Below are positions 34,963 through 62,624 of a stretch of 64,000 bases of DNA, piece by piece; the first letter of the stretch is position 1, and every line of letters begins with the position of its first letter. The stretch is from Girardia tigrina (lineage: Eukaryota): assembly GCA_001938485.1 (NCBI GenBank), contig MQRK01214219.1, positions 3,698 to 67,697 on the forward strand. The letters run 5' to 3'. The notes under the pieces are model-generated. The model worked only from the letters and a program-made list of their open reading frames with translations, ran no database searches and had not been told where the DNA came from. The position numbers and the translations under genes are program-made.

Positions 34963-35046
34963 CACGTTTACGGAAAAGACGCCGAAAGAAACTTTTGTTA
35001 TTCTCAATTGATTATTTTAGATACTGCGGAAAAATGTTTGAATTCG
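34963..35046 (+). CDS. NF1: Neurofibromin exon 3 (HVYGKDAERNFCYSQLIILDTAEKCLNS)
   Basis: Acceptor tttag; 84 nt; aligns with RIFGEAAEKNLYLSQLIILDTLEKCLAG; donor gttggt. Confidence 0.95.
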
Positions 35047-35409
35047 GTTGGTGAATGACTATTTTATTGATATTTTGAATTTGTTTTAATTGAATTTCGA
35101 TTATGTTTTATTTGTATTATATTTTATATAATATTGAAAAAATAATTTATTTTATTGTATCTAATTATACTGTATTAACAGTGAATACTGAAAATTTAAC
35201 ATTTAATTGACAATTTATTGTTTAAATCAAATTTACGATGTGTTTCTTTCGTTAAAGAATATAATCAGATAGATCTTCCATTAAAAAAATTTAAAACACT
35301 CAAAAACCATAAATTTGTAGTCTATTCTAAAAGATTGAATTCTGATTCGGTGGAATACAAATAAATTGATTCAAAAACAAAACAACTTATTATTTAAAAT
35401 CAAGAATGC

Positions 35410-36115: not shown

Positions 36116-36499
36116 TGTCTTATATGTAGAAGAATTCACAGAAAAATTCTGATAAGAATAATCGAGAAAGAAAATATACACAGAAGTTTTTTAAATTTCT
36201 TATTAAGAATTATCTTAATTTATTATTTATTAAAAAATAATAATTTTTTTATTTTTCGAAAAAATCTTATACTTTACTTTTTTGTAAAAACAATTAATAC
36301 AAAATTTTATGCTAAAATATTAATTCAAAATACTTATAATAATCAACATTTATTTTTTAACAAACATATTGAAATAATTTAAAAATTATTAAAAAGAATA
36401 TTTTTACACTCAAAATAATGTTTAAAAAATATTTTTTAAAAAATACCGAAAATTAAATTATGCTACAATATTAAAACTTTTTAATTGTTAAGAACACTG

Positions 36500-37960: not shown

Positions 37961-37994
37961 AACTATAAAATTAGATGAGCAGCTACATGTATAC

Positions 37995-38150
37995 AGTCTA
38001 AAATGTTCTAGAATATTCCAGAATGCTCCAAATTATTCTAAATTGTTCTAGAATATTTTTAATTGTTCCAGAATGTTCTAGAATGATCTATAGTCTTCAA
38101 AATTTTTCTGAAATATTCTAAAATATTCTAAAGTTCTAAACACTTCTAAT
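37995..38150. repeat. 10-bp minisatellite (aatgttctag-like)
   Basis: Repeated aatgttctag / aatattccag / attgttctag units. Confidence 0.8.
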
Positions 38151-39946
38151 CTATACAAGTTTTAAATGATTTGCAGCAAAGCCACACGTATTAGTAGTAG
38201 CAGTAACAAGATTAAATAAATGACGAATCGTAATTTTAATTGCGAGACGGCCTTTTATTTACAACCGAGAGAATTTGAACATGTTTTTAATGTTTTCTAA
38301 CAATTATAATTATTATAATTAAATGCTTAAATTCAAACTTGATTAATTGATCATAATGTCAAGTAAAAATTGTAACATTGTTACGCTGTAATTATTTCCC
38401 TGTTTTTTGTTTTTTAAGGAGTTAGGTTCTAAAAACTACCTTTAAAATTGTGTATCGCAATTCGGAATCAGATTTCTAATGTAATCCTTTACATCAGCTG
38501 ATTCTCTGTATTTGATGTGGATTAGGTATTATCTTTAAAATATTTTAAACAAATCTTACTATATAATTACTCAATTTAATTTAATAAACTGATAAATTAA
38601 AGCCAACTATGCACAAATAAATTAACATTCCACTAATCTTAAATGCAAAACACTTGCAAAAAAATGATGGAAATAGAACACCAGATCGCCAAAATAAGTT
38701 TCGTAGAAACAAAATGTAAATTGTCATTATTTAAACTGATTTAGTTTAACTGGCATTATAATCAGTTTTAAATTTTTATTTTATGTCATATGGGAATTAA
38801 ATCTTTTTCTCATATTTGAGAATAACTGCTTTAGATTCTGATATAAATTGACCATTGTTAAGATTCGAAAGTAATGAACAAACTGAAATTTCAAATAAAA
38901 AATAATAAAATTGACTCTGCCACAAATAACTTAAATTATCTAACAATATTACTGATGTCTCTAAACGCTTTTTAAAATTTCATTCTTAGTTTAATTTCGA
39001 AATATCGAACTTTTTTTCTGTTTTTAGGACAAAAATATTTTAAAATGGTTTTAAGCTTTTTTGATCTAATATTAATTTATAAAAAAAGAATTAAATAAAA
39101 ATGTTTGTATCTGTTTTTCTGTACATAATGCTTCATCGAATACTATATAATCAATATTACAGTCTGTATGTTTTTTATCTTTCCCTGAAAAAATATGTTT
39201 CTCGCGATTTAATTTCAGTGGATCTTATGAGAAGTGGTTGCAACCTCAATATCAGGATTCATTTTTTTAACACCAAAATTTTATTTAAAATTGTTTCATA
39301 ATTTCTATTAAAATATATAAATTGTTATGACTGTAAAAATAGTTTTTATTTATAAAATAAATATTTAATATTTAATGGTTTTCTTAACATTTTTAATTTT
39401 AAGATATTTAATAGACACATTAAAAAGATATTTTTTTATTTTTAAATAGATATTTAATTTTTTAAGATTTTCTTTTATTTTTAATTATTTTTAATTTTTG
39501 AAATATTTTTAAAAAACACATTAAAAACATATTTTATTTTTTAAGTACGTATTTGATTTTTTAATAGTTGTTTTATTATATCCTTTTTTTAATTTTTTAA
39601 AACATTTAATACGCATTTTAACATTAAAATATTTTACCTTTAAATTAAAAAAAATAATAAATTATTCTGGCGAGATGGAAATTTAAATTAACCCCTCATA
39701 GATCTGTTGCATGGAAAAGTTTTAAATCAAAACCTATCTTTATCGAAGTAGATCATCGATAAAAGCGAAGCAATAAATGTTTTGCATTTTCCAAAATTTC
39801 AAAATTCAATATTACTCCTCCAATGTCTCATTTGAAAAATAGAAATTTAATCCTGAATCATTTCAAGTTTATAATCATATTAATATAAACAGTTTGAAAA
39901 ATCGATTTTTTTTTCAAAAATATGTTTAAACAAAATTCGAAATAAA

Positions 39947-40081
39947 GGTATCCGGACTGTTCATCCCCGGACTGTTCATCCTGGAATTTTCATCCCCGGA
40001 CGTTTCATCTAAGCGGACGGTTCATCCACGGACTGTTCATCCCGGGGATGAAACGTTAGATGAAACGTCCGGGGATGAACC

Positions 40082-40113
<32 letters not shown>

Positions 40114-42429
40114 ATGGACATTTTCCTCTTTGCAAACATTTTCCTCATCCTGGACTATTCATCCAAACAATAATAGAAAATGGAAATAATTTTTTTTTAA
40201 AATAATTGGATGTTAAATTATTAAAATAAAACATGTTAAAATGAATTAAATGTATATCTAGAACTACTAGTTCTTTAGTTATTTAAAAAGTGTTAATTGT
40301 GGGATAAATGTGCAATTGCTTTCAGATACATAAGGACATCCGCTCTTCCGTAACCGGCTATAGCACGTCTGACTCTGTCCACTAAGTCTCGATATTTCTT
40401 GACACCTATTTCCTGGATTCCTGTAGCCCCTTGCATGAATGCTGCCTTATGTTTGTGACAATCCTTCTCCAACCCTTCGATGAGCAACCACATTGAAGGA
40501 TGACTGCACATGAATAAGGATTGAATTCCATGATGCCACCCTTCGACGATGTTTGTGGTCCGTGCGATTCCGTCACCGGCAGAGTCGTATTGATTCCACA
40601 TAGGGATTGGAAACGTCGCTGAGCCAAAATTGTTGCCTCTGCCTCGAAGTCTTCTACCTCTAATATAGGTGTATTCAAAGTAAGATAGAAGCTCATTCAT
40701 TTTATCATGTTCTGGCATATGTTCAGTTAGCAAGTCGAATGACTCAGCAACATCATCAACCGGTACATGAGCTAGTGCTGATAAACACCGAACACATCCA
40801 CGCAGTTCGTCGTCATTTTCGTAATCAGGCTTCATTCCCAGTTCGTTGACCTTGCGTATAACACTCTGGCTGAGATGAAAATAGCAACCTGTTACCGATG
40901 CTTCTGGATATCCATGATTGAATGCTCCCATAGCCGCTTGTTCAAAATCGGTCAGNNNNNNNNNNNNNNNNNNNNNNNNNNNNNNNNNNNNNNNNNNNNN
41001 NNNNNNNNGATCGTAAGTTCCTCGAGTCTTGTTAGTTAGCAGGCAATATACTGCAGCTGGGTTGACCCCGTTGACGAACTGAAAATGGATGCTGTATAGT
41101 TGAAAATAGATGGATGGCACTACCTTGAAAGTGCTATCAGCCAGCCAGACATCAGATCTGGCAAGACCATCCAGAAGTGTCCTATCACCAAAGATGAGAA
41201 GTCGATCTGCGCTTGGACCAGAATCGAATAATAGTAGATTGATGAATCTGCATGGAAATTCAAAGCTGAGATCAGTTGGTAGCAATGGCAAGGTCTGACG
41301 GTTATCATTTTTTGACAAAGCTGCTTGACGATGACGACGGAGAACCCGGTGTAGAGAAGTTTTCTTCGGCAAGGCCATCAACACATGTGGGGCCAGATCA
41401 GCCATAACCGCACCACACGACGAACTTGGTGTTGCTACGGTTTCTATCATTTTTTCCTTCATCTTGCCGATGGCTTTCCGTGCGAGTGCTAAAGCGACAT
41501 TACCGCTGTGAGTGTGATCCGGTGATTGATCTCCGATGATAACGTTGTCTCCGTTTGTGAAAAGTCACGCGTTGCAGTTGAAAACCTGGTGCTTGCAACA
41601 ACGCCATTCTGTTTTTCCTTGTTCGTTACAACGTTTTCTCCAGTATTCATAGTTGAGATGTATCAGCATCCGCTTTCCACGTTTTGAAAGTCCAAAATTT
41701 GTTGTCGGCATTGAAGACTCCAAAGTTTTTTAAAGAAGTTTGTTGGGTTCTTGATGAATATTAACAATTATTCAAACAATTTTTGTTGTAATAAAAATTG
41801 TTTTTCTTTTAATAAAAATTTTTAGAGGAACTTTTCTAAAGTTTTTATTATTATTATTACAAATTTTATTATTATTACGATGCATTAATGATAAAAGTCT
41901 TAATTAAATTTTTTTACACTTCTATTTAGAATAATTACAACCTATTTTCTCCTTCTATTATATATNNNNNNNNNNNNNNNNNNNNNTAAAATTCATTATT
42001 TCCCAATTAATTTCATTTAAGTTTTTTTTACTCTTCAAATAAAATTTGATTATTCTCGAAACTAACTTTTTAAAATTAATTACGATATATTTTTAAATTA
42101 TAAATAATTAGACAACTTTTGATTTGAAATATTTACTTATTTCAAATATTATCTATAAAAATTATTTATTCAAAAATTTGATGGGATGAGCTATTCACAT
42201 AAGTCCCTCACAATAAAATTTTCAAACTCACGCTTCACTGATGCCAAGTCGCTTTGTCGGATTAGTCATATAGGCCAGGCCAAATTATGATTATATTATT
42301 AAGTTTAAGTTAATCAATTGGATGAATAGTCCGGGATGAACAGTCCGGGGATGAACCGTCCGCTTAGATGAAACGTCCGGGGATGAACATTCCGGGATGA
42401 ACATTCCGGGGATGAACAGTCCTAGAACC
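39947..42429 (-). mobile_element. Phantom-type MULE (FLYWCH plus MULE transposase) with tandem-repeat TIRs
   Basis: TIRs built from 14-15 bp ggactgttcatcccc units; flanking duplication gaaataaa (39939-39946 and 42430-42437; 9 bp if the preceding c is included). Confidence 0.9.
40293..41711 (-). pseudogene. FLYWCH-MULE transposase, 473 codons with one premature TGA (41565-41567)
   Basis: FLYWCH: YEYW...EWRCCKHQVFNC...DHTH. MULE: LADSTFK, LTDFEQA, GCYFHLSQ, RTTNIVEGWH. One N gap inside. Confidence 0.9.
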
Positions 42430-45134
42430 GAAATAAAAACTAACATTTTTTTTAATAAGTATAATTTTATTTGTTATTTTCATTTATTTTATTCATTTGT
42501 ATAATATTTTACAGGATAATAATTTCACAACAATCCATTTTTACAATTGTTGTCTTTTTGATTAAACAAGTTATTTTATTTCCTTTATTTATATCTAACT
42601 GTCAATTTTAGGTAATAGATAGAAATCGTCAGTTATTGATTTGTATAGAAATTTTAAAATATTTTTAGCATTAAAAATCCTTAAAATATGATTGCTTAAG
42701 TATTATAAGAAGGTTAAGAGATTCCGTATAATGAATCTCCGAACTTTTTAACTCTTAAAACTTATCAAAAATAAATGGTAAGATATAAATGAATAAATAA
42801 GTAAACTGAATTAACTAAGAGAATCAATAAATTGGAATCGCAGAAGGATTAGTCTATATAATTGAAGAAATACTTTACGGATCAAATGAGGTTTGGAATC
42901 GTGAACAATAGTTACAATAAAGTACTTACAGTAGAACCAGAAGTTATCACCAGCCAATCGAATTTTGATAGTTTAGTAGGGTGGAATCAGTTAAGAGGGA
43001 TCTTCATCTATTAAAAAATATATTGGAGTGGTTTTGAGCAATTTGTGAGATTCGCAGTTCGAAAATTAATCGGAACCAATCTATTGGTTTGATTTGTCCC
43101 GACTTGTCTTAGAGACGAACAAAGAGTGTTCGTTTCGAATGATAATAATGCTCGGAAAAATTGTTTTGAGTAAAAGATATAGTTCTTTGACCAATAAATC
43201 AAACAATAAATAAAGACTTAAAATCGATAATAAATAAAGAGTAAAAAAATATTCCTTACAAACTTTAAAATTTTTTTATTGATTTCTGCTTAAGGCAATA
43301 TCGATTAAACGTTATCGCCATAGGCAAGTCATATATAAATTAATTTTAATATATAATTTTAATATATAATTAATATATTATTGCAAATAATACCTAAATA
43401 ATAAATTATAATATACATTTTAATATAAATGAATAATGTTGTGAGATATAATTAATAACTTAATAATAATTTGTAAATAAGTTAAATTAAATTAAAAATA
43501 ATAATGGTTCAAGAATATTTTTAATAAAACTCTGTATTTAGAATTTAGAATTTAAATAAATTAAAATATGTCATGAAATATGACATATTTTAAAGTTGTT
43601 TAAATAATCAAAATTATTAGGCGACAATTTATTTTTTTGATTAAATAAATTTTAAGAAGAATATTTTAGTTATTCCTAACAAATGTAATAATATAAATGG
43701 AAAATATATATAGTATATGATTGTAAATAAATAAATTAGATTAATATAAATATAAATGTAATAAAAAGGGGCCAAAACTGAGACAAAAGTGATTAAAGTA
43801 ATTACTTACCATAATCATTAAAATTTTGATATTCACAACATAAAATGGACTCATGGATTGACAAAGGATATATGTATATATTAAAATTATCCAATAATTA
43901 TAGAGGTAAATTATATGTTATTTAAATTATGTTATATTATTTATGGACAATAAAAAAATCTGTTTACTTTAGCATTATTATTTAGTTATTTTGGCAAGAA
44001 AAATAAGAAATACAATAATAACAATAATAAAGCTTTTTTAAGAAATTGATTATTGAATATGTTTTGAAGTTTCTTACTCCACCATTAACAATTATAATTT
44101 AATATTTGTTAGTTTTTATGTTAGTTTCATAAAATGTTAGTTTTCATTGAATGATTTTTTTATTTATTTTAAAAATTGAAAGGTGTGAGGAATATTTTAA
44201 ATTGTTTGAATGTGTAAATGTATAGATGTTGTATGTTGATTTAAGTCTGTTGAATTTAGAATGGTGATTCTCCCACCCAGATGGAAATTGGTATTTTTTT
44301 ATTTAAATTTAAAGTAATTGACTATTCGAACATAATTAAAATAATCATTTTATAAGTTCATACTTTTAATTTAACAATTAAAATTAAGTTTAATATATTT
44401 TAGTAAAATTTAAATTAAATGCATTTTTAATAATTTGATGACATTTTTATTATTTTGGGATTTATTGAGAAATGGTAAAAATTATTATTTTTAATTAATA
44501 TTTTTTAGAAGTTAAATATTTTAAAAAATTACTTAGAAAAAATGTTCGAATAATCGTTTAAAAATAGAAATAAGAAAACCAATTAGAACGATGACAAACG
44601 ACGAAAGACTTTCTGAGATTCATAATGACTCTAAATGTGATTTTAATAAAAATTCAAATGAGACTTGTCTAAATGTTCTTAATAAAAGGAATTGATTTTG
44701 TCAATTTTGTGCGTTTATTAATGCCTTATCAAAAAAGATTCATATATAAAATATAAAAACTTGTGCGAAGGAAAGAAAAATCGTTCACAATCAAGTCAAT
44801 CTAGTAAGGTTCTTGACATTTGCTTACATTATAAAATAGAATATCTTCTATTTCAAAGGAGTATTCTGTTTTATAGAAGGGCTTTGTATTAAAAATGACA
44901 AAAGTCATCTAAATTAACTATATAATAGAAAATTTTTTTTCAAAATCTTATTAGAACATAAATCTTGAATTGAAGATTGATAACGTTTGTAAATGAATAT
45001 CTAACGAAATAAGTTTAATAAGATATACATAGAAAGTTAATAATTAGTGATGTGGTTGAATTTTCCCTATTGATCGACGAAAAAGCGATGACCAAAAATA
45101 AGGCAAAGAAAAATTATATTGAGCAATTTATTAA

Positions 45135-46430
45135 GGTAACCAGACAATTCGACATAAGACATTTCGATACAAGACAATTCGACACAAATTAATATATATA
45201 CAATTGAATATACAGGGTTATCATAAAGTAACTAGAGTTTTAAAACCACTTTAATATTTCGTAGAAATAGTGGAAAACACAAAACAAATTGAAAAATGTA
45301 TTCAGTTATATTTCGGATTTATNNNNNNNNNNNNNNNNNNNNNNNNNNNNNNNNNNNNNNNNNNNNNNNNNNATAAATCCGAAATATAACTGAATACATT
45401 TTTCAATTTGTTTTGTGTTTTCCACTATTTCTACGAAATATTAAAGTGGTTTTAAAACTCTAGTTACTTTATGATAACCCTGTACAATTGTAAAAAGTAA
45501 AGGTTAATTTTCAACATTTTATTCATTGCAAATTAGCTAGCCAACGCAAGTATTTCAGTTTATCAACATTCGATGCATTCAAATTGTAATCTTGCACAGC
45601 CATTGCAATAGCCTCATGCAATGATACATATCTTTTCTTTACAACCTCTGAACGACCTGACAGAGCATTTGCCAAAGTCAGTCTGTGACAAGCTATATCT
45701 CTTCCAAGTCCATCAAGCAAGATCCAAATACTGGGGTGGCTGCATTGAAATATGACATTAAGAACTTTGCAGAAACCTTCGCAACAATTTGTAGTTTTTG
45801 GTGTTTGCTCACCAGCAGAATCGAAATGTTTCCAGTATATTGGAAACTGAGGTGCTCTACCAAGAGCATCCTCGATATAAATTGATAAGAAATATGTGAG
45901 AATTTCATTGTACCTATCCTCATCAGGGAATGTTGCAGCAAAAATATCAAAAACATTCCTGACATCAGTATCAAGCACAAAAACAAAGGCACAAAGTGAT
46001 TTTAGCCTAAGTTTGATGTCAATGTTGCTTTCATATTCATTCTTTAATCCAACAGTGTTGACTTTTCTGATAAGACTTTGACAGAGGTGAAAGTAACAAC
46101 TTCTAACATCTACGTCAGGAAATGTGACTTTTGCTGCATTCATGCATGCCTTTTCAAAATCAACCAAGATTTTTGTTGGTGACAACTGCGGCAATAGTTG
46201 TTTACGAATTTGAAACATCGTGTGATAAGTTTCTGTATCCTTTTTTTGCAAAAGAAAGTAAATGCAAGGTGGATATGATGTGCTTATTTGAGAATGCAAA
46301 GTATAAAGCTGATAAAACATGTTTGGTGACTTGTCAAATGTTCCATCACCATAAATGGTNTCATTGCAAAGTTTAAGTAATAGGTTTCTGTCACCAAATG
46401 CCAAAACTCTGTTAGGATCATTAGTCCGGA
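45135..46430 (-). mobile_element. Truncated MULE (transposase 46404-45523) with one subrepeat-type TIR
   Basis: YGDGTFD, LVDFEKA, CYFHLCQ and KTTNCCEGF motifs; terminus ggtaaccagacaattcgacataagacatttcgatacaagacaattcgacac. Confidence 0.85.
45213..45482. mobile_element. Tc1/mariner-type element ends (TA|CAGGG...CCCTG|TA) nested in the MULE
   Basis: 110-bp perfect inverted arms on each side of an N gap, with TA flanks. Confidence 0.75.
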
Positions 46431-49400
46431 ATCATAAAAAAACTAGTATAGAATATTTTTATATTAAATACATATTTTTCATATTAAATACATATTTTTT
46501 CATAAAAATTGATTTTTTTTATATATATAAAATATATAAAAACTGAAATCTATTTTCAAAATAATATGGTAGGCTGAATTGTACACGAATGAATTTTTAA
46601 AACATTTGTTCATATTAAATTTATATTTTATATTAAATACATATTTTTCATATTAAATACATATTTTTTCATAAAAATTGATTTTTTTCATACTAAATTG
46701 ATATTTTTTCATATTAAATACAGAAAAACTCATGAGTCTAACTAAAAATATAGTTATTTAAAATGTTACATCTTGTATAAAAAATTTGAGTAATATTTAG
46801 TTTTAAGTTCGATTATATTAATTTTCATTTCCGGATAAGCGATACATAAAAAAACATTGAATAAAAAAATTTAAATGCTATTAAAAGATCTATGTATGCT
46901 GTAGAGGGAAATTTTATCGGTAAATTTTGGCAGTACAATTACATTTCGAAGGATTTTTGTAGATCAGTATATATAAGCAGAAAATATAAACATTATTTTA
47001 ATTATAAATGGAATATAATTTTATTTCTGTACTGTTAGGAAAACTTTTTGCAGCCCAAATTTCTTCGAATTCCATAAAAAAATTTCAAAAAACAGATTAC
47101 ATTCATTGGATGCATATTTCGCGTTCTCTTTTGTATATCTTTGATTGGAAGACCCATTTAATTATTGGAAATGAAAAGGAACACTTAGTATTAAAAATCA
47201 ATTGAAAATTATAGTTGAGTACTAAAACTGCAGAATATTTAATAAAGACGAATCATTACAATAAAATCTGTAACTTCTTCATAAGAAAAATATTATACTA
47301 GAATAAATTAACAATTTTATTGAGTACTTTTATAATTACTAAATATAAATTAAAATCATGTTTTGCTGTTTACTGTACCTAATAAAAAACTCCAGGTTTT
47401 ATGTTTGAGCTTTATTGAATATATTATTAAAATTTACAATAATAAGTAAATTAGTTCTGAACTTTTACTTTACCAACTCTCTCCTAATGGCTGGAAATTA
47501 GATCAAAATTACGAGTCCCTTATTGTATAAAGTGCGAAATACACATTGATTGTTTATTTTGGAAATTTGGATTTTTCGGATATGAGGTTAAAACAATATT
47601 TATTTATTCGACCTTATTTTCGAATATTTTTAAATACTTTAGTGTTAACATTTTCAAACAATATTTCTATCTTCGAAAGTTAATCTTTGACCTATTACTG
47701 CCACCTAATTGTTGTTACTTTTATTTTAATTAATGTGTAATTAGTAATAGCTCAACTTAAGTAATTTAAATCTAAGTAATTTAAGATTTTAAAATAAATC
47801 AATACAAATGATCAAATATCATTTGTTCTACTCTACATCCTCTCGAGGCTCTCCAAATATAACAGTTAAATCTTCATTAATAATTACTTCAAGAAAATCA
47901 CATAAACCGAATTTAATTTTTTAATGAAATTGTTTGGAACATTTTCTACATCATTGAAGCTTATTTAAACCACTCCTAAAAGACCATTTTTTTCCAAATG
48001 CTACAAAAATTACTTTAAAAAATACATCGCAGGGATTGACTGCAATTGACTGGAATGATAAGTATTAAATATTAAAGCATTATTAAGGACTTTCATAAAG
48101 ATGATCCAAATTGTGAATGTAATATTTGTTGTAGCAAATGTGTGAGTTCTCTTAACAGTTTCAATAATCAACTATATTGGACGAAACATCCCTCTAACTC
48201 TCCAATTGTGTCGACACGAAACTACGAAATCGACGATCTAAACCTAGAGATCAGGAACGTTAATGTCCGGTTGATTAATCGAAATCCGTTGTGCGGCGTC
48301 TTCAGAAGTGACATAATTGCCCCTTTGAAAGTCGAGTTGGGGATCTGCTGTGTGCTTCAATCTGGGTTGGTAGGTTATCAAAGTGGTCCAAACAAACTCG
48401 TTTCTCATTCTGGAATCGTTATCTTTTCGGTATTCGTCGAGAAATGTGCAAGTTCCGACTACCGGTCGAACAGAGATGGATAAAAATCAGCCGAAACAAG
48501 TGTTGATAGTGATCTACAAATGTCAATCACCCTGATCAATGAACCAGGATTGTCTCTGTCGATATTTGGGGCGGTTGATATAATCTAGAGACAATATTGA
48601 ACCCATCAAGTAGACTGAATAACAAAAATAATACTAACATTATTGATTTATTAATATTTTACTGTGTTTGTAAATACTTGGTTAGTATCTTTTAGATAAC
48701 CTTTTTTCTTAATATTAGTTACGAATACAGGTGTCTGAAATTGTTTTGCTAGCACATACAGTACCTGAAGAAAAAGGGTTGGCTGTTCCGAAAATTGGTT
48801 ACGAAACTTTTCTGTTACAAGATTTGAATTATTATAGGTTTTTAGCTATTCATCAAGGATAAAAACTCTTTTTCTTGACATAACTTTCCCATTGCCATAA
48901 TAACTGATATTTTTAAAAATAATAATAATGTATTATTGAAATCTGAAATCTGAAATATTAAAAAATTAATTAAGGAAATATTTTGATAGATTAATGTCAG
49001 GATTCAAATAAATTTTGTGATTTATTTTTAGTTAGTTACGCCTACGAAACCTTCTAGAAGTACATGATGAATGGAATTAAATAAAGATTATGAATGTTTC
49101 TTCGCCTTTGACTGATTTATTGCATTTAAAAAATTGTTCTTTTTTTGAAACGTGCTATAGTATATCAAAAGATTATTTTTTGGAATAATTTGATCAAAAT
49201 AAACTAGGAATTATTTTTTTATTATTTTAAAACTTATTTAGAATTTGCATTATTTAATGTCTTTAAAATTAAAATTTATAGTAATAGAAATAATAAATTG
49301 TAAAATCACTTTACAAATATTACTCTATACCAATAATATTTTACATATATAATAACAAAAATAGAAAGAATTATTATGATTATATCAGACAAGAATTTCT

Positions 49401-50102
49401 GATCATTATGTATACTTTATATATATTATTGCATAAATAAATCTTTACAATTTTAAATAAAAACATTTTTTTTAAACAAGAACCATCAATCCTTAAATTC
49501 AGTTTTTTATTGTTTAACTGGAAGCGATTTCATTTTGTTTATATTCATTTTTCATAAATACTGTAGATTTCGTAAATAAGCTGCTGAAATTAATAATTAT
49601 GGGTTTAATTACTTTAATTTTGATAAAATGGGATGATAGTTCACATATAATATTGATTTTTATACTATTTTCTCCGGATGATATTGTTATTTTGATCACT
49701 AGATGAAAGTTCGTTTTTGTATATATATTTTTGTATATTCATTTTTGCCTAAATATTCATATTTTTCAAAACATATAAAGTGATGCATTAATAAGTATGA
49801 AAGATTGATTAATATTTTTGCTTCAAATTTGATTTTTGAACAATTTTACTATGAAATATTGAATTATTTATAATAAAAACTGAATATATATTGTTAAAAA
49901 TTTTTAGGTTATGTTTTTAAATTGTTTGAAATAATAATTGAATTAAAGTATCATTTTAAGTTAAAAAAATCAAGAATTAAATATAGTTTATGTTAAGCAT
50001 GAAAAAATTTCGTAAATTTAAATAAAGAAAATGAAATTATTCAATAGTCGGAAATTTAAAAAAATTTAAAATTAATTATTAATACTATATTTATTTTTAT
50101 TA

Positions 50103-50319
50103 CAGTAAAATCTCTCTATAAAGAGTTATTTTCGACCGAGAAAACTACTTCTCTATAAGAAAAGTTGCTTATAGAGAGAGAATGAATATAAATTAAATTA
50201 ATGAATAATAGAAAAAATAATGCTTTAAATCCTTTGTAATTTTCAATTTAACAAAAAATATTTTTCCTTATAGAGAATTACATCTTAAATAGAGGGAACT
50301 TTATAGAGAGGTTTTACTG
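50103..50319. mobile_element. pogo/Tc1-type MITE
   Basis: TA|cagtaaaatctctctataaag...ctttatagagaggttttactg|TA. Confidence 0.85.
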
Positions 50320-50499
50320 TATACCGATTTGAAACTTATGAAATAAATAGTTTCTAAAAATTAAAAAAAAATAAATGAATTTAATTTCGATTATATTTGC
50401 TTAAATAAAAAATTGTTTGATGTATTTACATTTTAATTTAAAAATTATATCTCAATCATTTAAAGTTGAGATTATGTTTTGAAATAAATCAAATACTCC

Positions 50500-50899
50500 T
50501 TTAGGTTTGTGTTCGGACATTGTTTATCAATACACATATAATGGGTGCAATGCCACATACATCCCAGAGACTGCCCGTCATCTCTGCAAACGAGTCCAAG
50601 AACACAGTCAAAAGGGGGGAAAGAGTAATATTGCTGAACTTGAAAAAATGTTTAATGTAATATGAGCATAAAAGATTTTAAGAATTTGTGCAACCATTTT
50701 AAAAAATTATTAGGAGAGTGTCATGGGAAGCATTGTTGATAAGATCATGTGATCCAAAAATCATATTCAAACAGCACTCTGAAGTAATTTGTTAAGAGTT
50801 TTCGACTGGACTTAAGTAAGTGATTACATAATCATTCATTTCTTATATAAAAGCAATAAAGCAGTGATCTAATGATGACGGTTAAACCGTCGAAATATA
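50500..50899 (+). mobile_element. Penelope-like 3' remnant (GIY-YIG plus hammerhead), continuing at 52534 after the mariner insertion
   Basis: CSDIVYQYTYNGCNATYIPETARHLCKRVQEH, related to 35685-35993; hammerhead-like tgat CTAATGA t gacggt-taa-accgtc GAAA ta. Confidence 0.8.
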
Positions 50900-52531
50900 C
50901 TTAGGCTGTCCCAAAAGTCCTCAGGTGGCCTTTAAAAACACACTAATATTTTACCAAATTTAACCAAATTTGGACTGAATATTATTCAGACTGTCATAAA
51001 TACTGTGTTAAAATTTCAAATCATAAAATTAAAAAAAGTAAAATTTTGTTTTATTAAAGTATTGAAATTTTCAAAGTGCAGCGAATTCAAATCAAGCGGT
51101 TTTTAACAATGGAACCAAATAAATGTTGCCAACGTTTTTTTGTTCTAACTCAAAGTAAAAGAGGAATCTCTGCGTGAGAAATTCTTCAGCAACTTCAGCA
51201 GGCATGGGAAGACGTAAATCACCCAGCACTGAAAACTAGTCAACAATGGTTGACTGATTTTAAAAAAGAAAAGCGGACGTCCTTCGACGATTCATCAAGA
51301 AGTGACAGGCCGTCATTAATAGACAATGAAAAGATTAAAGCAGTCAAAGAAGTGATTGATGAAGCTCCAAATGCGTCTTTGCGTTATATTGAAAATGAAC
51401 TTTCTTTAGGCAAAAATACAGTCCANNNNNNNNNNNNNNNNNNNNNNNNNNNNNNNNNNNNNNNNNNNNNNNNNNATGAAAAGATTAAAGCAGTCAAAGA
51501 AGTGATTGATGAAGCTCCAAATGCGTCTTTGCGTTATATTGAAAATGAACTTTCTTTAGGCAAAAATACAGTCCACAAAATTTTGCGTGAAAAAACTTCA
51601 TTACAAAAAAGTTTGCTCTGTTTGGGTCCCTCACGAACTTTCTGCTGCTAATAAACAACAACGCATTAACACTGCAAAGCATATACGCCATGTAATTTCA
51701 CAGATGGGTGATGAAGCATATTCCAACATANNNATCGAGGATGAGACATGGGTCTTTTTCCAAGGTAGAGGAAAGAAAGAAGATCACAAAGTTTGGATTC
51801 CTTCTAATGCTGTTCCACCAAAAGTGATAAAGCCATCGCCAATGACTGATAAAAAAATCTCTTGTTTTCGTAACCTTTACCTGAAACAAATGTTTTAATG
51901 TAAAAGCACTGTCATATGGTACCAAGATTGATTCCGAGGCGTATGTTAACTTTGTTCATGACACCGGTGAAAAATGGCGGAAACTTAGATCTAACAGCAT
52001 CAAGCTAAAGGAACTTAAGTGGAGGCATTAATAGAGGCATTCTAGCAAAGAAACAACTCTTTTTTTGAAAGAAGAAAAATTGAAAAAAATTATCAATCGC
52101 CCTATAGTCCAGATTTTAATCTGTGTGAAAGATTCTTGTTTTCAAAAATAAAAAAAAGTTTTAAAAATCATGTTTTCAAATCACATGAATAAATTGAAGA
52201 ACCTTGTAAATTCTTTATCAACAGAAACATTAAAAAATCAACTAGATAAACTTTTTAACTATTGTCAGTTGGTTATTGACAACAATGGTTAATATGTTGT
52301 TGCTTAAGAAATTTTTTAAATATTTTTTTAAATAAATTTTAAAAAAAGCTGCATTTAATTTTTTTGTTGGTTAATAATATTATTTTTTTGGTAAGTTTCA
52401 AATTTTATGCTTTGAAATTTTAACACAGTATTTATGACAGTCTGAATAATATTCAGTCCAAATTCGGTTAAATTTGGTAAAATATTAGTGTGTTTTTAAA
52501 GGCCACCTGAGGACTTTTTGGACAGCCTAAG
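50900..52531 (+). mobile_element. mariner-like element with ~130-bp TIRs and decayed transposase (51109-~52307)
   Basis: TA TSD; TIRs cttaggctgtcc...tttcaaa with only 3 mismatches by eye; motifs WVPHEL, EDETW and SPYSPDFNLC. Confidence 0.9.
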
Positions 52532-52845
52532 TATTATCATAAAATATATTTTTAAATGGCGTGTATTTGTTTTAAATAAATAGTATTATACATTTTTTGT
52601 GGATTAATAAAACTTGAAAAACGGTTTTTAATATCGACAACGTGGAAGATGTTCCAAAAACATCTAACATATATAAAAAATATTTAAAAATCAAACTGGA
52701 AAAATCTTAACGAAGTACTTAAAATAATGAAGAGATTGAGAAACATAAATAAAGCCCATTTATCAATTAAAGATAGATTTCATACAATTAAAGCCAAGGA
52801 AGACCAAAGTTTAATGTAACAAAATCTGTTTTAATATTAAACATA

Positions 52846-55800
52846 CCGTGCTACTCCAAATACTTTTCGCGCGCCAACTAAACGAATCGTTAATTGCGCG
52901 CGCAAATTATTTGGCTCTTTTAGATTAAATTATTAATTTTCTCATATAAACAAAATAAAATAGTAAAAATTGAAAATAAAATTAATTATATCATTTTTAT
53001 TTAAATTAATTTCATTATAAATCTATACGCGTGAAAATTAATTCTGAGATTGTTGATTCAGTTTTGTAATTAATTGGCTCAACTAAATTGTTTGAATAAT
53101 ATAGTTTTTTTGTAAATCGAAAAAATCATCTTATTTTACAAGCTATCGCGGCAATGATAGTAATCAGTAATTTGAAGAAATTTGATGGTGGGGAGGACGT
53201 CGAACGTTGAATCGACAGATTCGAGTTTGCCATCGAGGTAGACGGGCTAATGGCAAAAGAAGTCTCATGCTTGGTCATGCTGTTGGATGTGTCGGTATGC
53301 GACACATGGAAGGGATTATCGCTGGATCAACAAAGGAATGCCAATGAAATCAAAAGTGAATTGCGCCGAGTGTTTGGTTTGGGAAGATTTAACACATGGC
53401 TGTTGCTTGATCAAAAGAGGATTCTCCCGGGTGACAGATTGGACGTGTCGGCGGCCGAGATTAATCAGCTGATGCGGACCGTTGTTGGGGACCAGGATTC
53501 GATCGATGTGTTTTGTGCAATGACATTTATTCACAGTTTACCGGATCAATTATAGAAAGAGGTGCAGCCAAGATTGGACGTCGAATTCACGTTCAAGAGT
53601 GTGGTGAACTTAGCCAAAATGATATAGCCTCATCAACATCATCAAGAAGTGATTGCGGCGACCAACAGTAAAGTTCGATGTATTAGTTATAATCGACTTG
53701 GACACACGCAGAAGACGTGTAGGGTTAAATGCTTTAAATGCGGAGAAGTCGGCCATATAAAACTAACTGTAACATGTCGGGAAACGACAGAGGGGAGAAG
53801 GTCATGGGTCCAGCCTCTCCCCAGTAAATTGTGTAGGACCAAATGTCACAGTAAGATGGGGTGGTGGTGTAACTACCTGCAACTATCAACACGGGGAGTA
53901 GTGTCACTCTTTTTAGAAGAAGTTGCACAAAGTCAAGAATCGAAGGAGTTAGAAACAAGAGCATTGTGGCGGTTGACGGTAGTCAGGTAAATATCCTCGG
54001 TAAAGTACATCTACATGAGATTTTATTTTGTGGTATGAACCTGGGGCCTGTTGGAGCAATTGTTGTTGAAAGGCTGCCTGCAGGTGTCGACATCATATTG
54101 GGAAACAATGTTATTCTGAAACGTGGACTGACAATACGGGTAGACGGTGATGATGTTTGTATAAAACTTGGCAGTAATGGAGCAAAATGGAGCAAAATGG
54201 AGCAGTAATGGAGCAAAATCGCAAGCTATTACTGCAGCAACTGGAGTAAAAAGTGGAAGACATTTGCAGATAAAATAGGATGATTTTGAAGCTCAATTTG
54301 ACGTAAGGTATTGGAGCACACGATGAAGATTTGTTGATGATCATCCGGTTGAACGGAATGGCTTAGACAAAGATGTCAGGGTGCTTGGACTGAATGTACA
54401 AAGCAATTTCCAGTGGAGAAGATATCAAGATCTCGTAACTAGGGAGCTTGAGAAAGCAACGAGGAGAGAAGTACATGGAATTTTAGGGGAGTGAATAGGC
54501 CATGTCCCAGTTGCAGGATGGTTACGGGTTGCTTGTGCCTATATTCAGAGATTAACCGCAAAACACAAGATAGGCCGGGATGAATTAGTGTCAAAAGACA
54601 TCATAGAGAAAGTTAATGAAATCTGTCAAAGGCTGAGGATGGATGGAGATCCAGCATCATGCAAGTGGGTGGTAAATTGCAATAATAATGTTGTCATTTG
54701 GACAGATGCAAGTAGTATAGCAATGGGCGTACTACTGTGCGTTAAGGGTAATATCATTGAAGACACTGCTGGTTAAGGAAAGAAGGCGATATAAGCCATA
54801 TTAATATGAGTGAACTGGATGCGGCAATAAGGGACTAAACTTGGCAATAACCTAGGGCTTTCATAAGTTCAAGCTGATGACGGAATCAGCAACAGTGTAT
54901 GATTGGCTCATGGCAGTATTCAAGAATACACACAACCCAAAAACCCGCACGTTATCTGAACATTTGGTGCGGTGAAGACTCGATATCACGAGAGAGTTGA
55001 AAGATCATGAAAAACTGAAAGTGGAACTGGAATTGGTGAAATCTCAATTGAATATGACAGATTGTTTGACCAGGGTTCCAAAACAATGGCTAAACAAGAA
55101 AGTGGAAGTAAACGCCATTGAAGTAAATCAGTATCCAAGTGTTGATGAGAACAAGAAAATTCATGATATCTGTCACTTTAAAGTCTACAGGACGAGTGAA
55201 CTGTTGAAGGCAAAATATGTGTCTAATGTAATAAAGTCGGATCAAGTTAAGGAAGCTATCATGAAGTGTGTTGTGTGTTCAAAGATCTGTCCAGCCCCAC
55301 GAATTGAGTATCGACATGGGCAATTGTCAACTGACAAGGTATGGTACCAACTTTATAGCGATGTGACTTATTTCAACGATGTCGCGTATCTGACCATAGT
55401 GGATTCAGTGACAAGATTTTTATTTGGAGAAAGTTGCGCAGTGAATCCGCCGAGGAAATAGGTTGGCATATAGATAGCGTATGCTCTGAATTTGGACCGC
55501 CGAAACGTTTCTTTTCCGACAATGCGGCTGTCTACCGAAGTGCCCCAGTGAAACGGTTACTGGATAAATAGAGAATCGAGCAAGGGTTCACCGCAGCCTA
55601 TCGGCATCAAGGGAATGGGATGGGCGAGAGAAATCACCGCACCATTAAGACAATGGTGGCGAGATCTGCAAAGTCGATCAGCGAATGCGCGTTTTGCTAC
55701 AACAGTACGACGGGTCACCGGGATGCGGGGCCCTATGAATTGATGTTCCATGCCAAGTTTCGACTGCCAATAATTCGAGATGAGCGTTAGGTTGAATGCA

Positions 55801-56613
55801 AATTCATCTCGGAATGCATTTTGAATGATGAGTATGATGCTATGATGAAAAACCCGTTCAGCATTGATGAGAATGTTTATTTGAGAATCGACAGGAAATG
55901 CACTGAACCATAGGCGGGGTCGCATGTAATTACATCGTTGAAGTCAGTAGTTGGGGTGGAGCTGGATGATGATGGAATCACTAGACATATATCCCATATC
56001 AGATATTAGTGGATTCCGATGATCGCATTTCAGACAGTGAAGACGAAATGAGTGAACTGACAACGCAAGAGGTAGCTATAGATTCTGCTAAACGACCGGT
56101 GCAAGAACAGAAACCCCCTCAGTATCTGGACGATTATGTGATTTGATCTGGAGATCATGGGGACTGTAATTAATTGGATCATCTAATTTGTTTGATTAAT
56201 AGTTTTTTTGTAAATCGAAAAAATCATCTTATTTTACAAGTTTTATGCAAAATTAACATAAAGATAATTAGAAGAATTATTAATAAAATTTATTTTAATT
56301 TTAGTATATAAAAAATGCCAGCAGCTAAGAATTATAGAAAAATTACTATTATACGAAAAGTATTTATAATAAACCAAGTTGATGGTACGAAATCAATTCA
56401 TTCTATCACAAAGGAAAATGATATTCCGGAGTCAAATATTAAGAGTTGGTTAAAGCAAGAAGATAAATTAAATAGATTATTAAAAGAAAATGCAGTTTAA
56501 ATACATTCTCAAAATAGATTATTTGGTGGCAGTAAACACCCAAAATTTGATAATTTGGAATAAAAAAATTTTGATTACGTAGTTGAAAATAATAATAATA
56601 GAATCTGTGTTAA

Positions 56614-56647
<34 letters not shown>

Positions 56648-58263
56648 GCCAAAGCTTTGCGATTCAAAAATGAATTTGTAAAAACTATTGGTGAATCATT
56701 AGATAATTGTAATGACGATGAATTAAAGGAAGACATATTTAAGTTACTAAACGAATTACTTAAATTTAAAGCTTCACCAGAAAGTGCTTTCGTTTCGAAA
56801 ATCGACACAATCGGGTTAAATGTGGGTAAACAACGATGAACAGATGCCCGAAAAAAATTGTAGAGATTTCCACCAGTTTTATTGGATAATGTCAATTAAT
56901 TATTAAAAAACAAAATATTTTACCAGAAAATTTTTTAAAATTTCGATCAAGTACCAATATATTTTGAACATGAGCCTACAACAACAATTGCAGTAAGAGG
57001 AACAAAAGATATTCTCCACAGAAATACTTAAAAAATCAAAAAAGTTTACATGTACCCCAACTATAAATTCTCAAGAAAAGATTCTTTTCTAACATGTATT
57101 ATTTCCTAAATTAAAGAATGAACCCAATGTTTCTTCAGGTTTCACAATTGAAGAAAATGCAACTGATATGTTGAATGAGACGATATGAAAAAGATTTTTT
57201 AATTAATGTATATTAAGAAGACCTCAAGCATGTCTTTTACGTCAACCAACATTAATAATTTTTATAGTTATACAGTACATGAGAAATTTGTAAAGCAATA
57301 CGCACAATTCATGAAGAAAGTTGTAATATTTTTTACTGTTGATTTCACCAATAATGATTGGTATGTTTCAACCTTTAGATGTTGAAGTTAATATAAGTCT
57401 TCAAGTTTATTATAACAATAAGTATAATAATTGCAATGGTCAAGCAATAAATAATCAAAAAATGAAGACAAAAGCTGGAAATATAAAAATGCTTTCCTAT
57501 ATAGAAATAGCTAATTGGATTGAAGAATGATCAAAATCAAAATCTGATTCAGATATTATAAATACATTTTTTGTTTGTGGGTTAGTGAAGATTTTGATAT
57601 TGATGATATAAGTATTATATATGAACCATTAAGAGAATGTTGGAATACAGATTTTGATAAATTAGCATGGAATAAAAAATATAAAAATTCTATGAATAAA
57701 ATGGAACGACAAAATTTCTTCAATGAAAATAATTATGAATGGATTACAAAATCTCTTTGGATGACTGTATGAAAAATTCTCCATATTGATGACCAATTAT
57801 TTAATGATTGGAAAGAAGAAATTAAACATCAATTTACTTCTTTTGTTGAAGATTCAAAGGTAAAAGTCTGAATTGTATGAGGAATATGAGCAATCATTAG
57901 TAGAAAAAGAAAGTTTGAAAATGAAATATAAATCTTGAAATTTGGAGAATATTTTGCTGAAAAATATTGAGAACTCATTTATTTAATCATCTGATATTTA
58001 TGGACATTGTGTCATTTTTTCTCGAAATTTAAATAAATTTTTGTACTCAATACTTTCTTTTTACTTAGTATTTATTTTTTTAATAAGGATAGAGAAATGG
58101 ATATCATAAATTGTTTCTATATTGAAACGTTTTTTTACTAACTTTTGATTTTATTTTTTGAATCTAAATAATTTGCTTGTGCAAACTTTTCACTTAATTT
58201 TATAATTGACATTTTCTTAAAATTTGGTTAGTTTGCGAGCGCAAACTATTCGGGTTAACACTG
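52846..58263 (+). mobile_element. Old pogo/Tigger-type transposon (transposase ~56315-57850) interrupted by an LTR element
   Basis: Diverged TIRs TA|ccgtgctactccaaatac...ctattcgggttaacactg|TA; CENP-B-like HTH (IPESNIKSWLKQ); DDE_1 motifs NFDQVPIYF and FQPLDV. Confidence 0.75.
53065..56238 (+). mobile_element. Gypsy-type LTR retrotransposon with 76/74-bp LTRs and RT core deleted
   Basis: LTRs at 53065-53140 and 56165-56238 (TG...CA); 5-bp TSD agttt; gag (KFDGGEDVE, CFKCGEVGH), protease remnant, RNase H WTDASSIAMG, integrase (LYSDVTY, FSDNAA, GNGMGERNHRTIK); purine-rich tract before the 3' LTR. Confidence 0.92.
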
Positions 58264-59891
58264 TAGTCGTGAAGTTAAGTAAAACTTCTACAGTAATAGT
58301 TTTAGTAAAATTACTAATATAATACAATTCAAAAAAAGCTGAATGCAAACAGGAATTACGAAATTATTATGAAAATGTAAATATATATGTAAAATCCATC
58401 TACATCAAAAACAGAAAGAGTTAATTTACTTTTTTAGTCCAATAAAGTCGTCATATAGCTCGAAGTTATTTATAATTTTTTTAATAATATTTTTTATAAT
58501 TTTGTTTTGATCCATCGTATGTCTATACTCCCATTATGTCTTTGTCAGTCGAGCAGCGATTGTCATGTTATGAATATCAAAAACATTGTTTTCAACACTT
58601 TAATTTTAACCAGTAATTAATAAATATTATACATCTGTTAAATTAAAGTGAATAAACGGGGTAAAACTAAATTCACAGGTTGTTCTTTGTCAACTAAACA
58701 TTATTTTTTTGTTATTTTTTGAAGTTACATTGGTTGTTCAAATGGACAAAAACAGATAAATAATTGAACTCTAAATCACCATCTATTTATTGTAATTTAC
58801 TCGTGTGAGTAAACTATAGTTTCAAATAAAATCTTCTAAAAGGTTCTCTTTTTACTATTCTTATTCTATATAAGCTTACTAATTCTATATAATCTTAAAA
58901 CTCTAAATAACTAACTAATATTATGCATTTTATTGTCGAATCGCACAACTTTTTTTCAGACAAATGTGGATTAATTACTCATCCTTAATCAACCTTTCCA
59001 TTAGCTTTTATAGCTTTTTATTTTTTTAATAAAATAACTAAAATTAAAATTTTATTTGGTTATCAGAATTACGTTTAATGAAATTATATATTGAAACAAA
59101 AATAAAATAATAGTTTTATTAATGAATTCTAATTCTATTAATTTACTGACTAACAAATTTATGGATAGACAAGATAATAAAATATAATGGCAGAAAGAGA
59201 TTTCAATAGTTTTACGAGACATTAGCTCAATTAATGATCTGATTCCGAAATTATTTAGTGAAATAAGACTGTAGAAAAAATTTCCAGTGAGTCTTAAATA
59301 AAGAATTGTGAAGGGATCTGGTTGGAGTATGTTGCACCATTCTAAAAATAATTACTTCTCTTTATAAAAATGAATAAATTGAATAATTGGTGGTATCAAT
59401 TCCAAATATACAAAATCTCGAATATTTCAAATACAATTGAATCGTTTCTACATTTAAAGGTAATTTACAATTATTATAGAATAATACAATATTCAATAGT
59501 AATAGTCATTTATAGTTGCTATCAACTATAAATGATTCTTCTACCATCTAACTCCTCTCCTGTCGCAAATATTTCAGATCCTGTGATGCTTAACAATTGC
59601 TATCCCAGTTCACTTCAGTCATATATCAGTATTATACAATAGAATAATCTTAATCAAATTTTTAGATATTGTTTAAGTTGTTTAAATATTATAATAATTA
59701 AATTAACCAACATTTTTGGTTTTCCATTAATAAATTAAACAAAAACAAAACAAGCATTATTTTCAAGAAAAGTGTTAGCTAATCCCAAGATTAATTTTAA
59801 GTGATACCCAATGATAAACTATTTAACATGCTGTGATTATAAGGGAAATGGGACAAATTAAGTTAACGTGATTGATATATTCTATTTTTAA

Positions 59892-61015
59892 CACTAGAAT
59901 GACAGGACCGGTCATTTTGACTGGTATGCTATACATTTGTGTCTGCATTGTGAAAATCGTGAGTAGTTTAAAGCTGCTATCTTATGATAATTGTTTATTT
60001 TTGCGGATTTACTTTCCTTCTTAAAATTTAGGCATCGGGGTAATATTTTAAGTATATCCAACAACAACAGAACCGGTAATATTGAGAAGTAAGCAATGAA
60101 TAGACTAGGAAAATCAAATATATTTTTTAAAACATGATCAGCAGTTATTTACGTGAAAAAGACTTTAAACTAGTCCCAATTATGTCAGAGTGCTTTTCGC
60201 TTCAACTAAGTAGTCCTCAGTAGAGTATTAAATACAGTGGCGTTTAAATTAGTCAAAAATTCAGTCCTATTACACTACCTCACTATTCCACTTTTCAGTA
60301 CAAATAATAAACTTATTACAAAAAAGCATTTTATATCATTCTTAACCCACTTAAATAATTGAAAGACATTGACTTTATTCAACATTTAATTCTTTTGTGC
60401 AAAGCAAATGATGTGTTTAAGTAATATTATTTTAAAACATTTTTTCCGCATATAATTTCATACTTTTTATGAAACTATAAATTAAAAATCCACTTTGATA
60501 CATTTGTAACAAATAAACAACTAAAACAAACATTATTTAAATGTATTTCATTATATTTGTTTATCACTGTATTTAAAATTAACGATTAATTAAATAAAGG
60601 AGTTAACTGAAACTGATGTTTGAGTGAACTCTTAACGGAAATAAATAGATAAATAAAAATATAAAAAATAAATTTTAAATAAATTATATTATCTAACAAT
60701 ATAAATGACTAACTTAAACAATGTTTTATGTAGTGTTTGATGTTATATCTGTTCTGATCGTCAAACGAGATTGAAAGAAAAGGGTATTGGAAATTGTTGT
60801 GGAACAGGAAATCAACGGTTGATTTTGTTTGTTTTGCTTCTGATATTTCCAGTTTTTTTCTCTGTAAATTGTCGATGATATATTTCCAAATATTTTGGTT
60901 TGTTTGATTACTAATTATTGTCAAAAATGACAAACCCTCAATGTTATGAAATTGTTTGGAATTCATTTTTGCCATTGATTGATTTTTTTACAATCACTTC
61001 TAATATTTATATACA

Positions 61016-61058
<43 letters not shown>

Positions 61059-61454
61059 NNNNNNNNNNNNNNNNNNNNNNNNNNNNNNNNNNNNNNNNNN
61101 NNNNNNNNNNNNNNNNNNNNNNNNNNNNNNNNNNNNNNNNNNNNNNNNNNNNNNNNNNNNNNNNNNNNNNNNNNNAAATAAAAAACAAATTTATAAAATG
61201 TATTACGTTTTTAAGACATGATTATGTAACATAGAATAAGAGTTCAGTAATATTTTCTATAATTTATATCTAAACGTGATTGTGAAGGCGAAACAGATAA
61301 TGAAGCAACTGTAACCCTACTTTTGGCCCACCCTGTATATATATATAATTTATAATATAAATAAAAATAAGTAGTAGGGCACTACAAATTATACGACCGG
61401 TCAAAGTGACCGCTTTCGCCATTAAATGTATAGAATTTTATCGTTGTACTAGTG
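59892..61454. mobile_element. Probable non-autonomous piggyBac-like element
   Basis: TTAA|cactag...ctagtg|ATAA (one mismatch) with subterminal accggtca....gacc palindromes at both ends. It spans an N gap, so the two ends may not belong to one copy. Confidence 0.5.
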
Positions 61455-62011
61455 ATAATGAATTGATAATTTTTTGAAACGGAGATTTATATAAAGAAGT
61501 TTTATTTTTCACAAGACACATTATCTTCTACATTTCTGGCTCTTTTAATAAATAAATTTTGTTTCCATCATTTCTTTTAAATCTCCAATAAAAACAAAAT
61601 TATTTAACGATTTTTCCGAGTATATTAACAATACGCAATGCTAATATTATTATTCTAATCATTATAAAAAAATTTAATTATCAGAAGAATTAGTTTTAAC
61701 TCAGTAATGGTAGATCTCAATAACTTTAGAATTGAAAATTAAAATTGTTTTATTTATACTCAATCTAATATAGTGTTCATTAACGATTTCCTGGTACTGG
61801 TTAAATTAAAAAAATAGTTCTGATTATAAATGGGTTGATGAGAACAATGATACATTTTGTTTAGATTTTAGAAAAAACAATTAAAAGCAATGTATTTTTG
61901 TTTATTTCTTTATTATACACAGTTGTCTAAAAGAAGAGTAAACTATTTTATTTATAAATCTTATCGGATTGGTAGTATGATTGGGACTTAAAGGTTTGTC
62001 TATGTTATAAT

Positions 62012-62324
62012 TAGGGTACGGAATTTAATGACCTTAAAAATCAAAAAAATGACTCTATTTTATTTCCTCTCTTTCCGGGTGAGATATTATTTTGTTCGTC
62101 CCCTCTGCCAATAGAGTCGCCACCGTCACCAATCCGCCGCAGTCACACCACTGCGCCACCCACTCTGTTATCAATGATTATTATTATTATTATTATTATT
62201 AATATTGGTGACGGTTGCGACTCTATTGGCAGAGGGGAGGATCAAAATAATATCTCAGCCGAAATGAGAGGAAATAAAATAGAGTCATTTTTTGATTTTT
62301 AAGGTCATTAAATTTCATGCCCTA
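62012..62324. mobile_element. hAT MITE with ~120-bp TIRs
   Basis: TAGGG...CCCTA termini; perfect 8-bp TSD gttataat (62004-62011 and 62325-62332); internal (att)n. Confidence 0.92.
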
Positions 62325-62516
62325 GTTATAATTAAACTCTATTTAAGAGTCACTGTCAAAATCTTCGCTAAGATATTCAGTTCCAAGATTAATTGTTTTA
62401 AATTAATAGACAATATAATTTATGTTATTTATTGTGTGCTAAGAACGGTAAATTCGGTAAAAGCACTCGAGAAGGCAACCAATATGCTAAAATGAAATTT
62501 TCGTTTATTTTACATG

Positions 62517-62561
<45 letters not shown>

Positions 62562-62624
62562 CTGATTATTCATTAAAATATCAATTGAATTTTTTTTTAT
62601 TATAAAAACTTTTCTTTTCTTAAG

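Follow-up and report, generated by a model that had tools for sequence, protein, structure and literature searches.

Introduction

The closest described relatives of the motif analyzed here are the minimal hammerhead ribozymes (min-HHRs) carried by pLTRs of metazoan Penelope-like elements (Cervera and De la Pena 2014, PMC4209133). As set out in the part of that study available to us, these are type I hammerheads with a long helix II, a short helix I, an extra base between positions 9 and 10.1, a G10.1–C11.1 pair and a palindromic helix III, and thousands of them survive as lone copies from truncated elements, all of which holds for the present family as well. The same text reports no detectable in vitro cleavage by a single minimal hammerhead (a result echoed in PMC6765202) and little by dimers; monomers given a longer helix III did cleave, mostly at non-physiological Mg2+ (PMC4209133). 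The family described here differs in having a helix I of 3 to 4 bp and a U at position 17, and the copy of principal interest differs further in carrying a G5A change together with a mariner inserted in helix III; the accessible portion of PMC4209133 describes no such insertion. This copy lies in a 64,000-nucleotide stretch of the Girardia tigrina genome (contig MQRK01214219.1), hereafter the window.

Three other systems bear on the arrangement. The Tc1/mariner superfamily is known to target palindromic AT sites (PMC8934666); Sleeping Beauty uses, as the element in the window does, a TA within an A/T-rich palindrome and duplicates it, whereas the present element, a DD34D mariner, shows strict A-TA-T flanks (in 95 of the first 100 ends listed) and repeats of ~131 bp. 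The bipartite hammerhead of mammalian Clec2 mRNAs (PMC6765202) likewise has halves hundreds of bases apart that are joined by pairing, whereas here the pairing would come from transposon ends, the motif is intronic, the predicted fold is out of register, the core carries a mutation, and any activity is putative. The animal non-LTR retrozymes (bioRxiv 10.64898/2026.07.22.740005) are hammerhead repeats related to Penelope, for which a depletion from introns is reported in Xenopus, but are tandem non-coding units, whereas the window copy is a lone remnant of a coding end; neither "orientation" nor "antisense" appears in the main text of that paper as seen by us. Finally, a fast engineered hammerhead placed in an intron is reported to lower expression up to 20-fold, and only in sense orientation (PMC11856399, as far as its text was available). 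The papers listed by the literature searches, from which subscription journals were outside coverage, included no prior report of a transposon-split or repeat-rejoined hammerhead or of an orientation bias of Penelope-related hammerheads.

Results

A mariner-split minimal hammerhead in intron 3 of NF1

The features of the locus are collected in Table 1. The end of exon 3 (35046) and the start of exon 4 (62625) were placed by tblastn with three NF1 homologues, the window exons match the PDB neurofibromin entry (E 1.7e-08), and exons 1 to 3 are joined GT..AG in contigs from three of the four sequencing runs; no run is recorded as RNA despite these spliced contigs, in which cut ends would be invisible. 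The exon coordinates place the hammerhead sense to NF1 and within intron 3, as the initial annotation had it, and the mariner-split copy lies ~10 kb upstream of the 3′ splice site of that intron.

Table 1. Coordinates of the features of the NF1 intron 3 locus, in window positions
Feature	Position	Strand	Basis or remark
NF1 coding intron 3 (27.6 kb), host of all three window hammerheads	35047..62624	+	tblastn, PDB match, spliced contigs
Family B hammerhead, core intact, stem I pair 1.1-2.1 broken	35431..35472	-	family-B comparison, run contigs
Second family B hammerhead, core wrecked (CTAAAAA), 626 bp from first	36036..36115	-	family-B comparison
5′-truncated Penelope-like 3′ end, family A: frameshifted GIY-YIG tail, 3′ UTR, hammerhead 5′ half	50428..50899	+	genome matches
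5′ half of minimal type I hammerhead	50865..50899	+	sequence and family alignment
Stem I, 5′ strand, TGAT	50865-50868	+	sequence
Core CTAATGA, then extra T	50869-50875	+	sequence
Stem II, 6 bp, 3-nt loop	50877-50891	+	sequence
GAAA	50892-50895	+	sequence
TATA (helix III)	50896-50899	+	sequence
Defective mariner (DD34D) of about 1,482 bp; transposase in sense orientation to NF1	50900..52531	+	TA duplication, inverted repeats
Left terminal inverted repeat, about 131 bp	50900..51030	+	sequence
Assembly artefact: 100-bp duplication and 50 N	51326..51475	.	skipped by contigs of runs X12 and X1
Right terminal inverted repeat	52401..52531	-	sequence
Duplicated TA, U16.1, U17, ATCA, remaining Penelope end	52532..52578	+	91% over 47 bases to family copy
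Duplicated TA	52532-52533	+	sequence; TT (U16.1, U17) next
Stem I, 3′ strand, ATCA	52536-52539	+	sequence

Excising the mariner together with one TA restores the family sequence; letters and family alignment agree on the rebuilt tgat-CTAATGA...atca motif, whose predicted cut site follows U17 at 52535. Searched with its 5′ flank against its own genome (1.43 Gb, about 30% GC), the Penelope remnant shares 89 to 91% identity with the best 40 among 3,154 candidates and differs from the family majority at 31 of 470 bases (6.6%). In 26 of 29 other copies, read by eye, TTAT follows at once; one copy is a base short, and in two a deletion reaches a second AATATATT. This second AATATATT, ten bases past helix III, belongs to family A, and the deletion, seen in L004 and L011, removes the cut site. 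The family consensus thus carries CUGANGA and GAAA and runs on with TTAT after the TA, and family open reading frames and copies together bear out the description of the locus as a Penelope GIY-YIG remnant carrying a minimal hammerhead with a palindromic helix III.

The family core is CUGAUGA, so that 50871, an A in the window, represents a genuine G5A change; it occurs in none of 33 copies compared and, by eye, in one of the first 100 among 1,825 family-A matches. The same 100 matches end in ATCC, giving a 3-bp stem I, in 77 cases, in ATCT in two and in ATCA, the 4-bp form of the window copy, in 21. ATCA is thus not private to the window copy, and the 4-bp stem I is a subfamily trait. The mariner does split the hammerhead, but the insertion lies in helix III, between 15.1 and 16.1, adjoining the catalytic core rather than within it as first described. 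Both lesions of a copy that had been called doubly dead are present, but they do not amount to double evidence, a second lesion being neutral after a first. Other than the mariner ends, no inverted partner was found over the hammerhead of the window copy.

The hammerhead family and its Penelope elements genome-wide

Exact-core hammerheads (CUGANGA and GAAA, with U16.1 and H17) number 10,829 in the genome, against none in the reversed control. Helix III sites, searched as CGAAATATAT, number 30,468 against 5,841 in the reversed control, or about 24,600 after correction, so that ~44% of these sites have an exact core and ~56% do not. Several haplotypes are kept in the assembly, and copy counts are therefore inflated: NF1 exons recur in contigs C230512, C147573 and C60766 (97.7% for exons 1 to 3), and several myosin and kinesin exons are present three or four times.

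Comparison of 60 distinct copies shows the G10.1–C11.1 pair in 49 and the extra U after position 9 in 58, with TATA, TAAT and CATG as palindromic variants of helix III. Across families, helix II shows compensatory A-U/G-C and C-G/U-A pairs and helix I covaries at pairs 1 and 2. Further hammerhead families combine a CATG or TAAT helix III with an A at position 17 (L027, L168, L209; L139, L217, L257). The search pattern missed some families, one copy being recovered through the 60-copy comparison only and one through BLAST only. The Rfam models, proposed in the initial annotation as a check, do not detect the minimal form, split or unsplit: covariance searches of the window returned no hammerhead with E values up to 5, nor did those of four unsplit-copy loci with E up to 10.

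Open reading frames of the family contain the motifs YVDD and IVYQY..YIGET, of a reverse transcriptase and of a GIY-YIG domain at the end of the frame. A family frame matches the Pfam GIY-YIG model weakly (E 0.0014, below cut-off), two partial family frames gave no match to the Pfam reverse transcriptase model, and the Penelope fragments of the window itself gave no Pfam match. Many family loci have pLTR tandem or inverted repeats that hold the hammerhead. In the inverted pairs, the two copies point away from each other (L128-L129, L185-L186 and many other loci), so that, whichever way the gene runs, the complement is transcribed ahead of the sense hammerhead and would mask it.

The mariner element and the order of insertion

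The TA duplication and the terminal inverted repeats confirm a TA-targeted mariner. Contigs of two of the four runs skip the 150 bases marked as an artefact in Table 1, which sets the true length of the element. The frame of the window copy contains WVPHEL, which, like YSPD, is a mariner motif; a D-34-D spacing is found in two of the nine family copies measured (L098, L099), the remainder carrying indels, and Pfam returned an HTH match only, with no match to a transposase family. The inverted repeats of mariners are usually roughly 30 bp, and those of ~131 bp found here are unusually long. The family as a whole (L061-L102) has these ~131-bp repeats, an A-TA-T target and copies 2 to 4% from the majority. 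Exact 23-mer ends number 1,374 in the genome, and from the ends listed we estimate about 950 insertions.

The family sequence is interrupted at the duplicated TA, so the Penelope copy came first and the mariner second. The Penelope copy is probably older by some way, judging from divergence from the respective majorities, 6.6% against 2.0% (31 of 1,579 bases) for the window mariner, although subfamily structure may inflate the former figure. An empty allele, that is, the site lacking the mariner, was sought and not found: the NF1 contig C230512 covers only window positions 34342-35489, stopping at 7,097 bases. Joints across the mariner in run contigs were considered as an empty allele and rejected, as they derive from other family copies.

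We consider it quite likely that the locus arose by neutral nesting, in which an older and probably never active lone ribozyme decayed and was then struck by a mariner at ATATAT; the nesting order, the target preference, the copy numbers and the intron position are all observed directly. A truncated Penelope copy with a minimal hammerhead sits sense in NF1 intron 3, where the lone motif, its monomer fold predicted to lie 6.6 kcal/mol above the ensemble, would be unable to form helix III and cleavage would need a second copy. G5A would be one of about 30 random changes. The mariner is inserted at a TA of helix III, ATATAT fitting its preferred target, and in the pre-mRNA its inverted ends would pair and hold the halves, mostly two bases out of register. 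As it stands, the locus is a clean but ordinary nested insertion.

Helix III as a mariner target

Read by eye over the first 100 listed of 1,630 mariner-end matches, an A precedes the TA in 95 and an A or T followed by A in 89, and ATATAT in helix III therefore offers two ordinary preferred sites. The genome holds about 11 million A/T-ATAT-A/T sites, and the expected number of helix III insertions is 3.3 over the about 24,600 sites, or 1.5 over the 10,829 exact cores only; these expectations are for one mariner family, with site density taken from one 90-kb sample. Mariner ends follow CGAAATA or CGAAATATA in 12 cases, of which four, the window copy included, are hammerheads; both junctions are seen for the window copy and two other split hammerheads. 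The other eight junctions, two duplicates among them, were not counted as hammerheads.

One could read the recurrence of four insertions across three hammerhead families as the mark of a true mariner hotspot, with helix III attracting the element by more than its ATAT letters, the more so as only 1.5 are expected when exact-core copies alone form the base. The split copies, however, lack an exact core, so that the proper base is the about 24,600 sites with 3.3 expected, at which three or more insertions have a chance probability of 0.65 and five or more of 0.24; moreover, nearly all of the estimated 950 insertions (~99.6%) fall outside hammerhead helix III. A hotspot is extremely improbable on these figures and, for this mariner family, close to refuted. 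Of the proposal that the TATA stem acts as a built-in mariner target, there remains that ATATAT contains preferred sites, but insertions occur at the chance rate (four against about 3.3 expected). The landing of the mariner in the hammerhead is likely a chance event, occurring at about the predicted rate.

Predicted rejoining of the halves by the mariner ends

In the predicted fold of the 1,541-nt region, 128 of the 131 repeat bases pair and continue helix III, and the model thus suggests that the two halves still meet in RNA despite the insertion. Since the TA is duplicated, the pairing register is shifted by two: in the flush register, two extra bases separate A14 from the first pair of helix III, and the active register must bulge the duplicated TA. 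The prediction favors the flush register over the active one by 5.3 kcal/mol, and the insertion probably disables the ribozyme by this misregister; all fold energies and probabilities given here are nearest-neighbor estimates without Mg2+.

A different history, in which the insertion activated the ribozyme before it was silenced, would have the inverted ends lend a dimer-dependent hammerhead the helix it lacks, so that the NF1 copy became a two-part ribozyme active as a monomer and G5A then silenced it or made the insertion tolerable. Besides the extent of repeat pairing, the predicted joint probability of the three key pairs speaks for it, at 3e-4 (split, with G5 restored) and 1.6e-3 (split as is) against 2e-5 for an unsplit copy. 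The active fold is thus predicted to be 15 to 70 times likelier in the split form than in a lone monomer. Precedent can be found in the single motifs that cleaved once helix III was lengthened (PMC4209133) and in the functional bipartite hammerhead of Clec2 mRNA (PMC6765202), both as described in the parts of these papers seen, although the extended monomers of PMC4209133 did so mostly at non-physiological Mg2+. All four mariner-split hammerheads carry a core lesion, which is suggestive only, because ~56% of sites have no exact core anyway and split copies are expected to be older than average. Together with the preference for the inactive flush register, and with a G5A change that may precede or follow the insertion, this leaves activation followed by silencing very unlikely. 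Taken alone, its in vitro component, that the split form cleaves faster than the unsplit monomer, is possible if somewhat doubtful, and an accompanying effect on the host is much less probable than that. If such a fold-back did operate, transposon ends would have a simple route to activating a ribozyme that lies latent within a host gene.

Antisense and other intronic copies

The initial annotation had contrasted the dead sense copy with an intact antisense copy in the same intron (35431-35472) as fitting selection against self-cleavage of the host pre-mRNA. The antisense copy does have an intact core, but its stem I is broken next to the cut site: base 1.1 is an A where the family has G, and the stem I pair at the cut site is lost, a difference (window position 35434) found also in run contigs. 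The second antisense copy (36036-36115), absent from the initial annotation, is worse still, with a wrecked core. A later NF1 intron (contig C218320) carries a sense copy with an intact core, its letters identical to those of the 35431 copy, so that the contrast fails within NF1 itself. Both NF1 family-B copies (35434; L128, C218320:9799) share the G-to-A change at 1.1, which is absent from the other family-B copies compared and may reflect a subfamily, local copying or recurrence.

Hammerheads collected from introns bracketed by exons of one gene number nine in sense and eight in antisense orientation, with an intact core in five of the nine and four of the eight. These 17 copies come from about 10 genes (NF1, DAG kinase, a PALP enzyme, four myosins and three kinesins), with duplicate haplotype contigs taken once; among those counted, the antisense copy at position 5712 of the DAG kinase intron is doubtful. 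Copies bracketed on one side only (antisense in P450, GCN1, C216278 and C206557; sense in C247296) and seven unassigned copies are excluded. Gene finding that started from the hammerheads covered 30 loci and 540 kb, with 388 frames submitted to Pfam (299 of 674 scored, one further, and 88 of 505 more), and yielded two bracketed genes; the search that started from genes covered 145 kb bracketed and 222 kb one-sided, plus 16 further stretches.

If sense intronic hammerheads lowered host mRNA, so that only disabled ones persist, lone intact sense copies should be missing, and among the nine bracketed sense copies none is both fully family-like and without an inverted partner (partners were unchecked in two damaged ones). 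For the sense copies in NF1 and DAG kinase, a complementary copy is transcribed ahead of each, and stem I of the PALP sense copy is down to 1 bp. A lone intact antisense copy neighbors P450 exons, which flank it on one side only. The principle has been demonstrated for fast ribozymes (PMC11856399, as seen in part), and in the window the ~10 kb to the 3′ splice site would leave minutes for cleavage. Against selection, the lone antisense copies in bracketed introns are damaged too, in four of four cases, the three fully family-like antisense copies each belong to an inverted pair, the orientation tally is 9:8, and a lone intact sense copy lies 5 kb past a kinesin-like exon, for which a later exon was not found. 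Monomers were inactive in vitro in the part of PMC4209133 available. The ribozyme moreover has a U at position 17 and no loop-loop contact.

Each of these two features slows hammerhead cleavage. The idea is sound in principle but needs an activity that this motif probably lacks. At 6.6% divergence, the probability of a change within the 11 core bases is 0.53. We regard selection against pre-mRNA cleavage as unlikely, and there is so far no sign of host selection against the hammerhead; the 17 copies exclude the wholesale removal of sense hammerheads but leave room for a bias against those that are lone and intact. With more than 10,000 exact-core minimal hammerheads, this genome could show whether these ribozymes cut in vivo through a comparison of lone sense and antisense intronic copies.

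Other features of the window

A short repeat with ends TACAGTAAAA...TTTTACTGTA (50101-50323), to which many contigs map, lies 100 bp upstream of the Penelope remnant and is probably a Tc1/mariner-type miniature element. At 45211-45484, a perfect palindrome of 137 bp, centered on a run of N, is probably an assembly artefact. Further mobile remnants, found at 13153-14196, 17475-18052, 40296-41564, 45526-46431 and 53129-55900, comprise a second mariner, a Tc1-like piece, two MULE transposases (Pfam) and an LTR-retroelement-like gag-pol remnant. Finally, an exon with a Sec63/Brl domain (10026-10232, minus strand, E 3.1e-12) is probably the end of a Brr2-like helicase gene.
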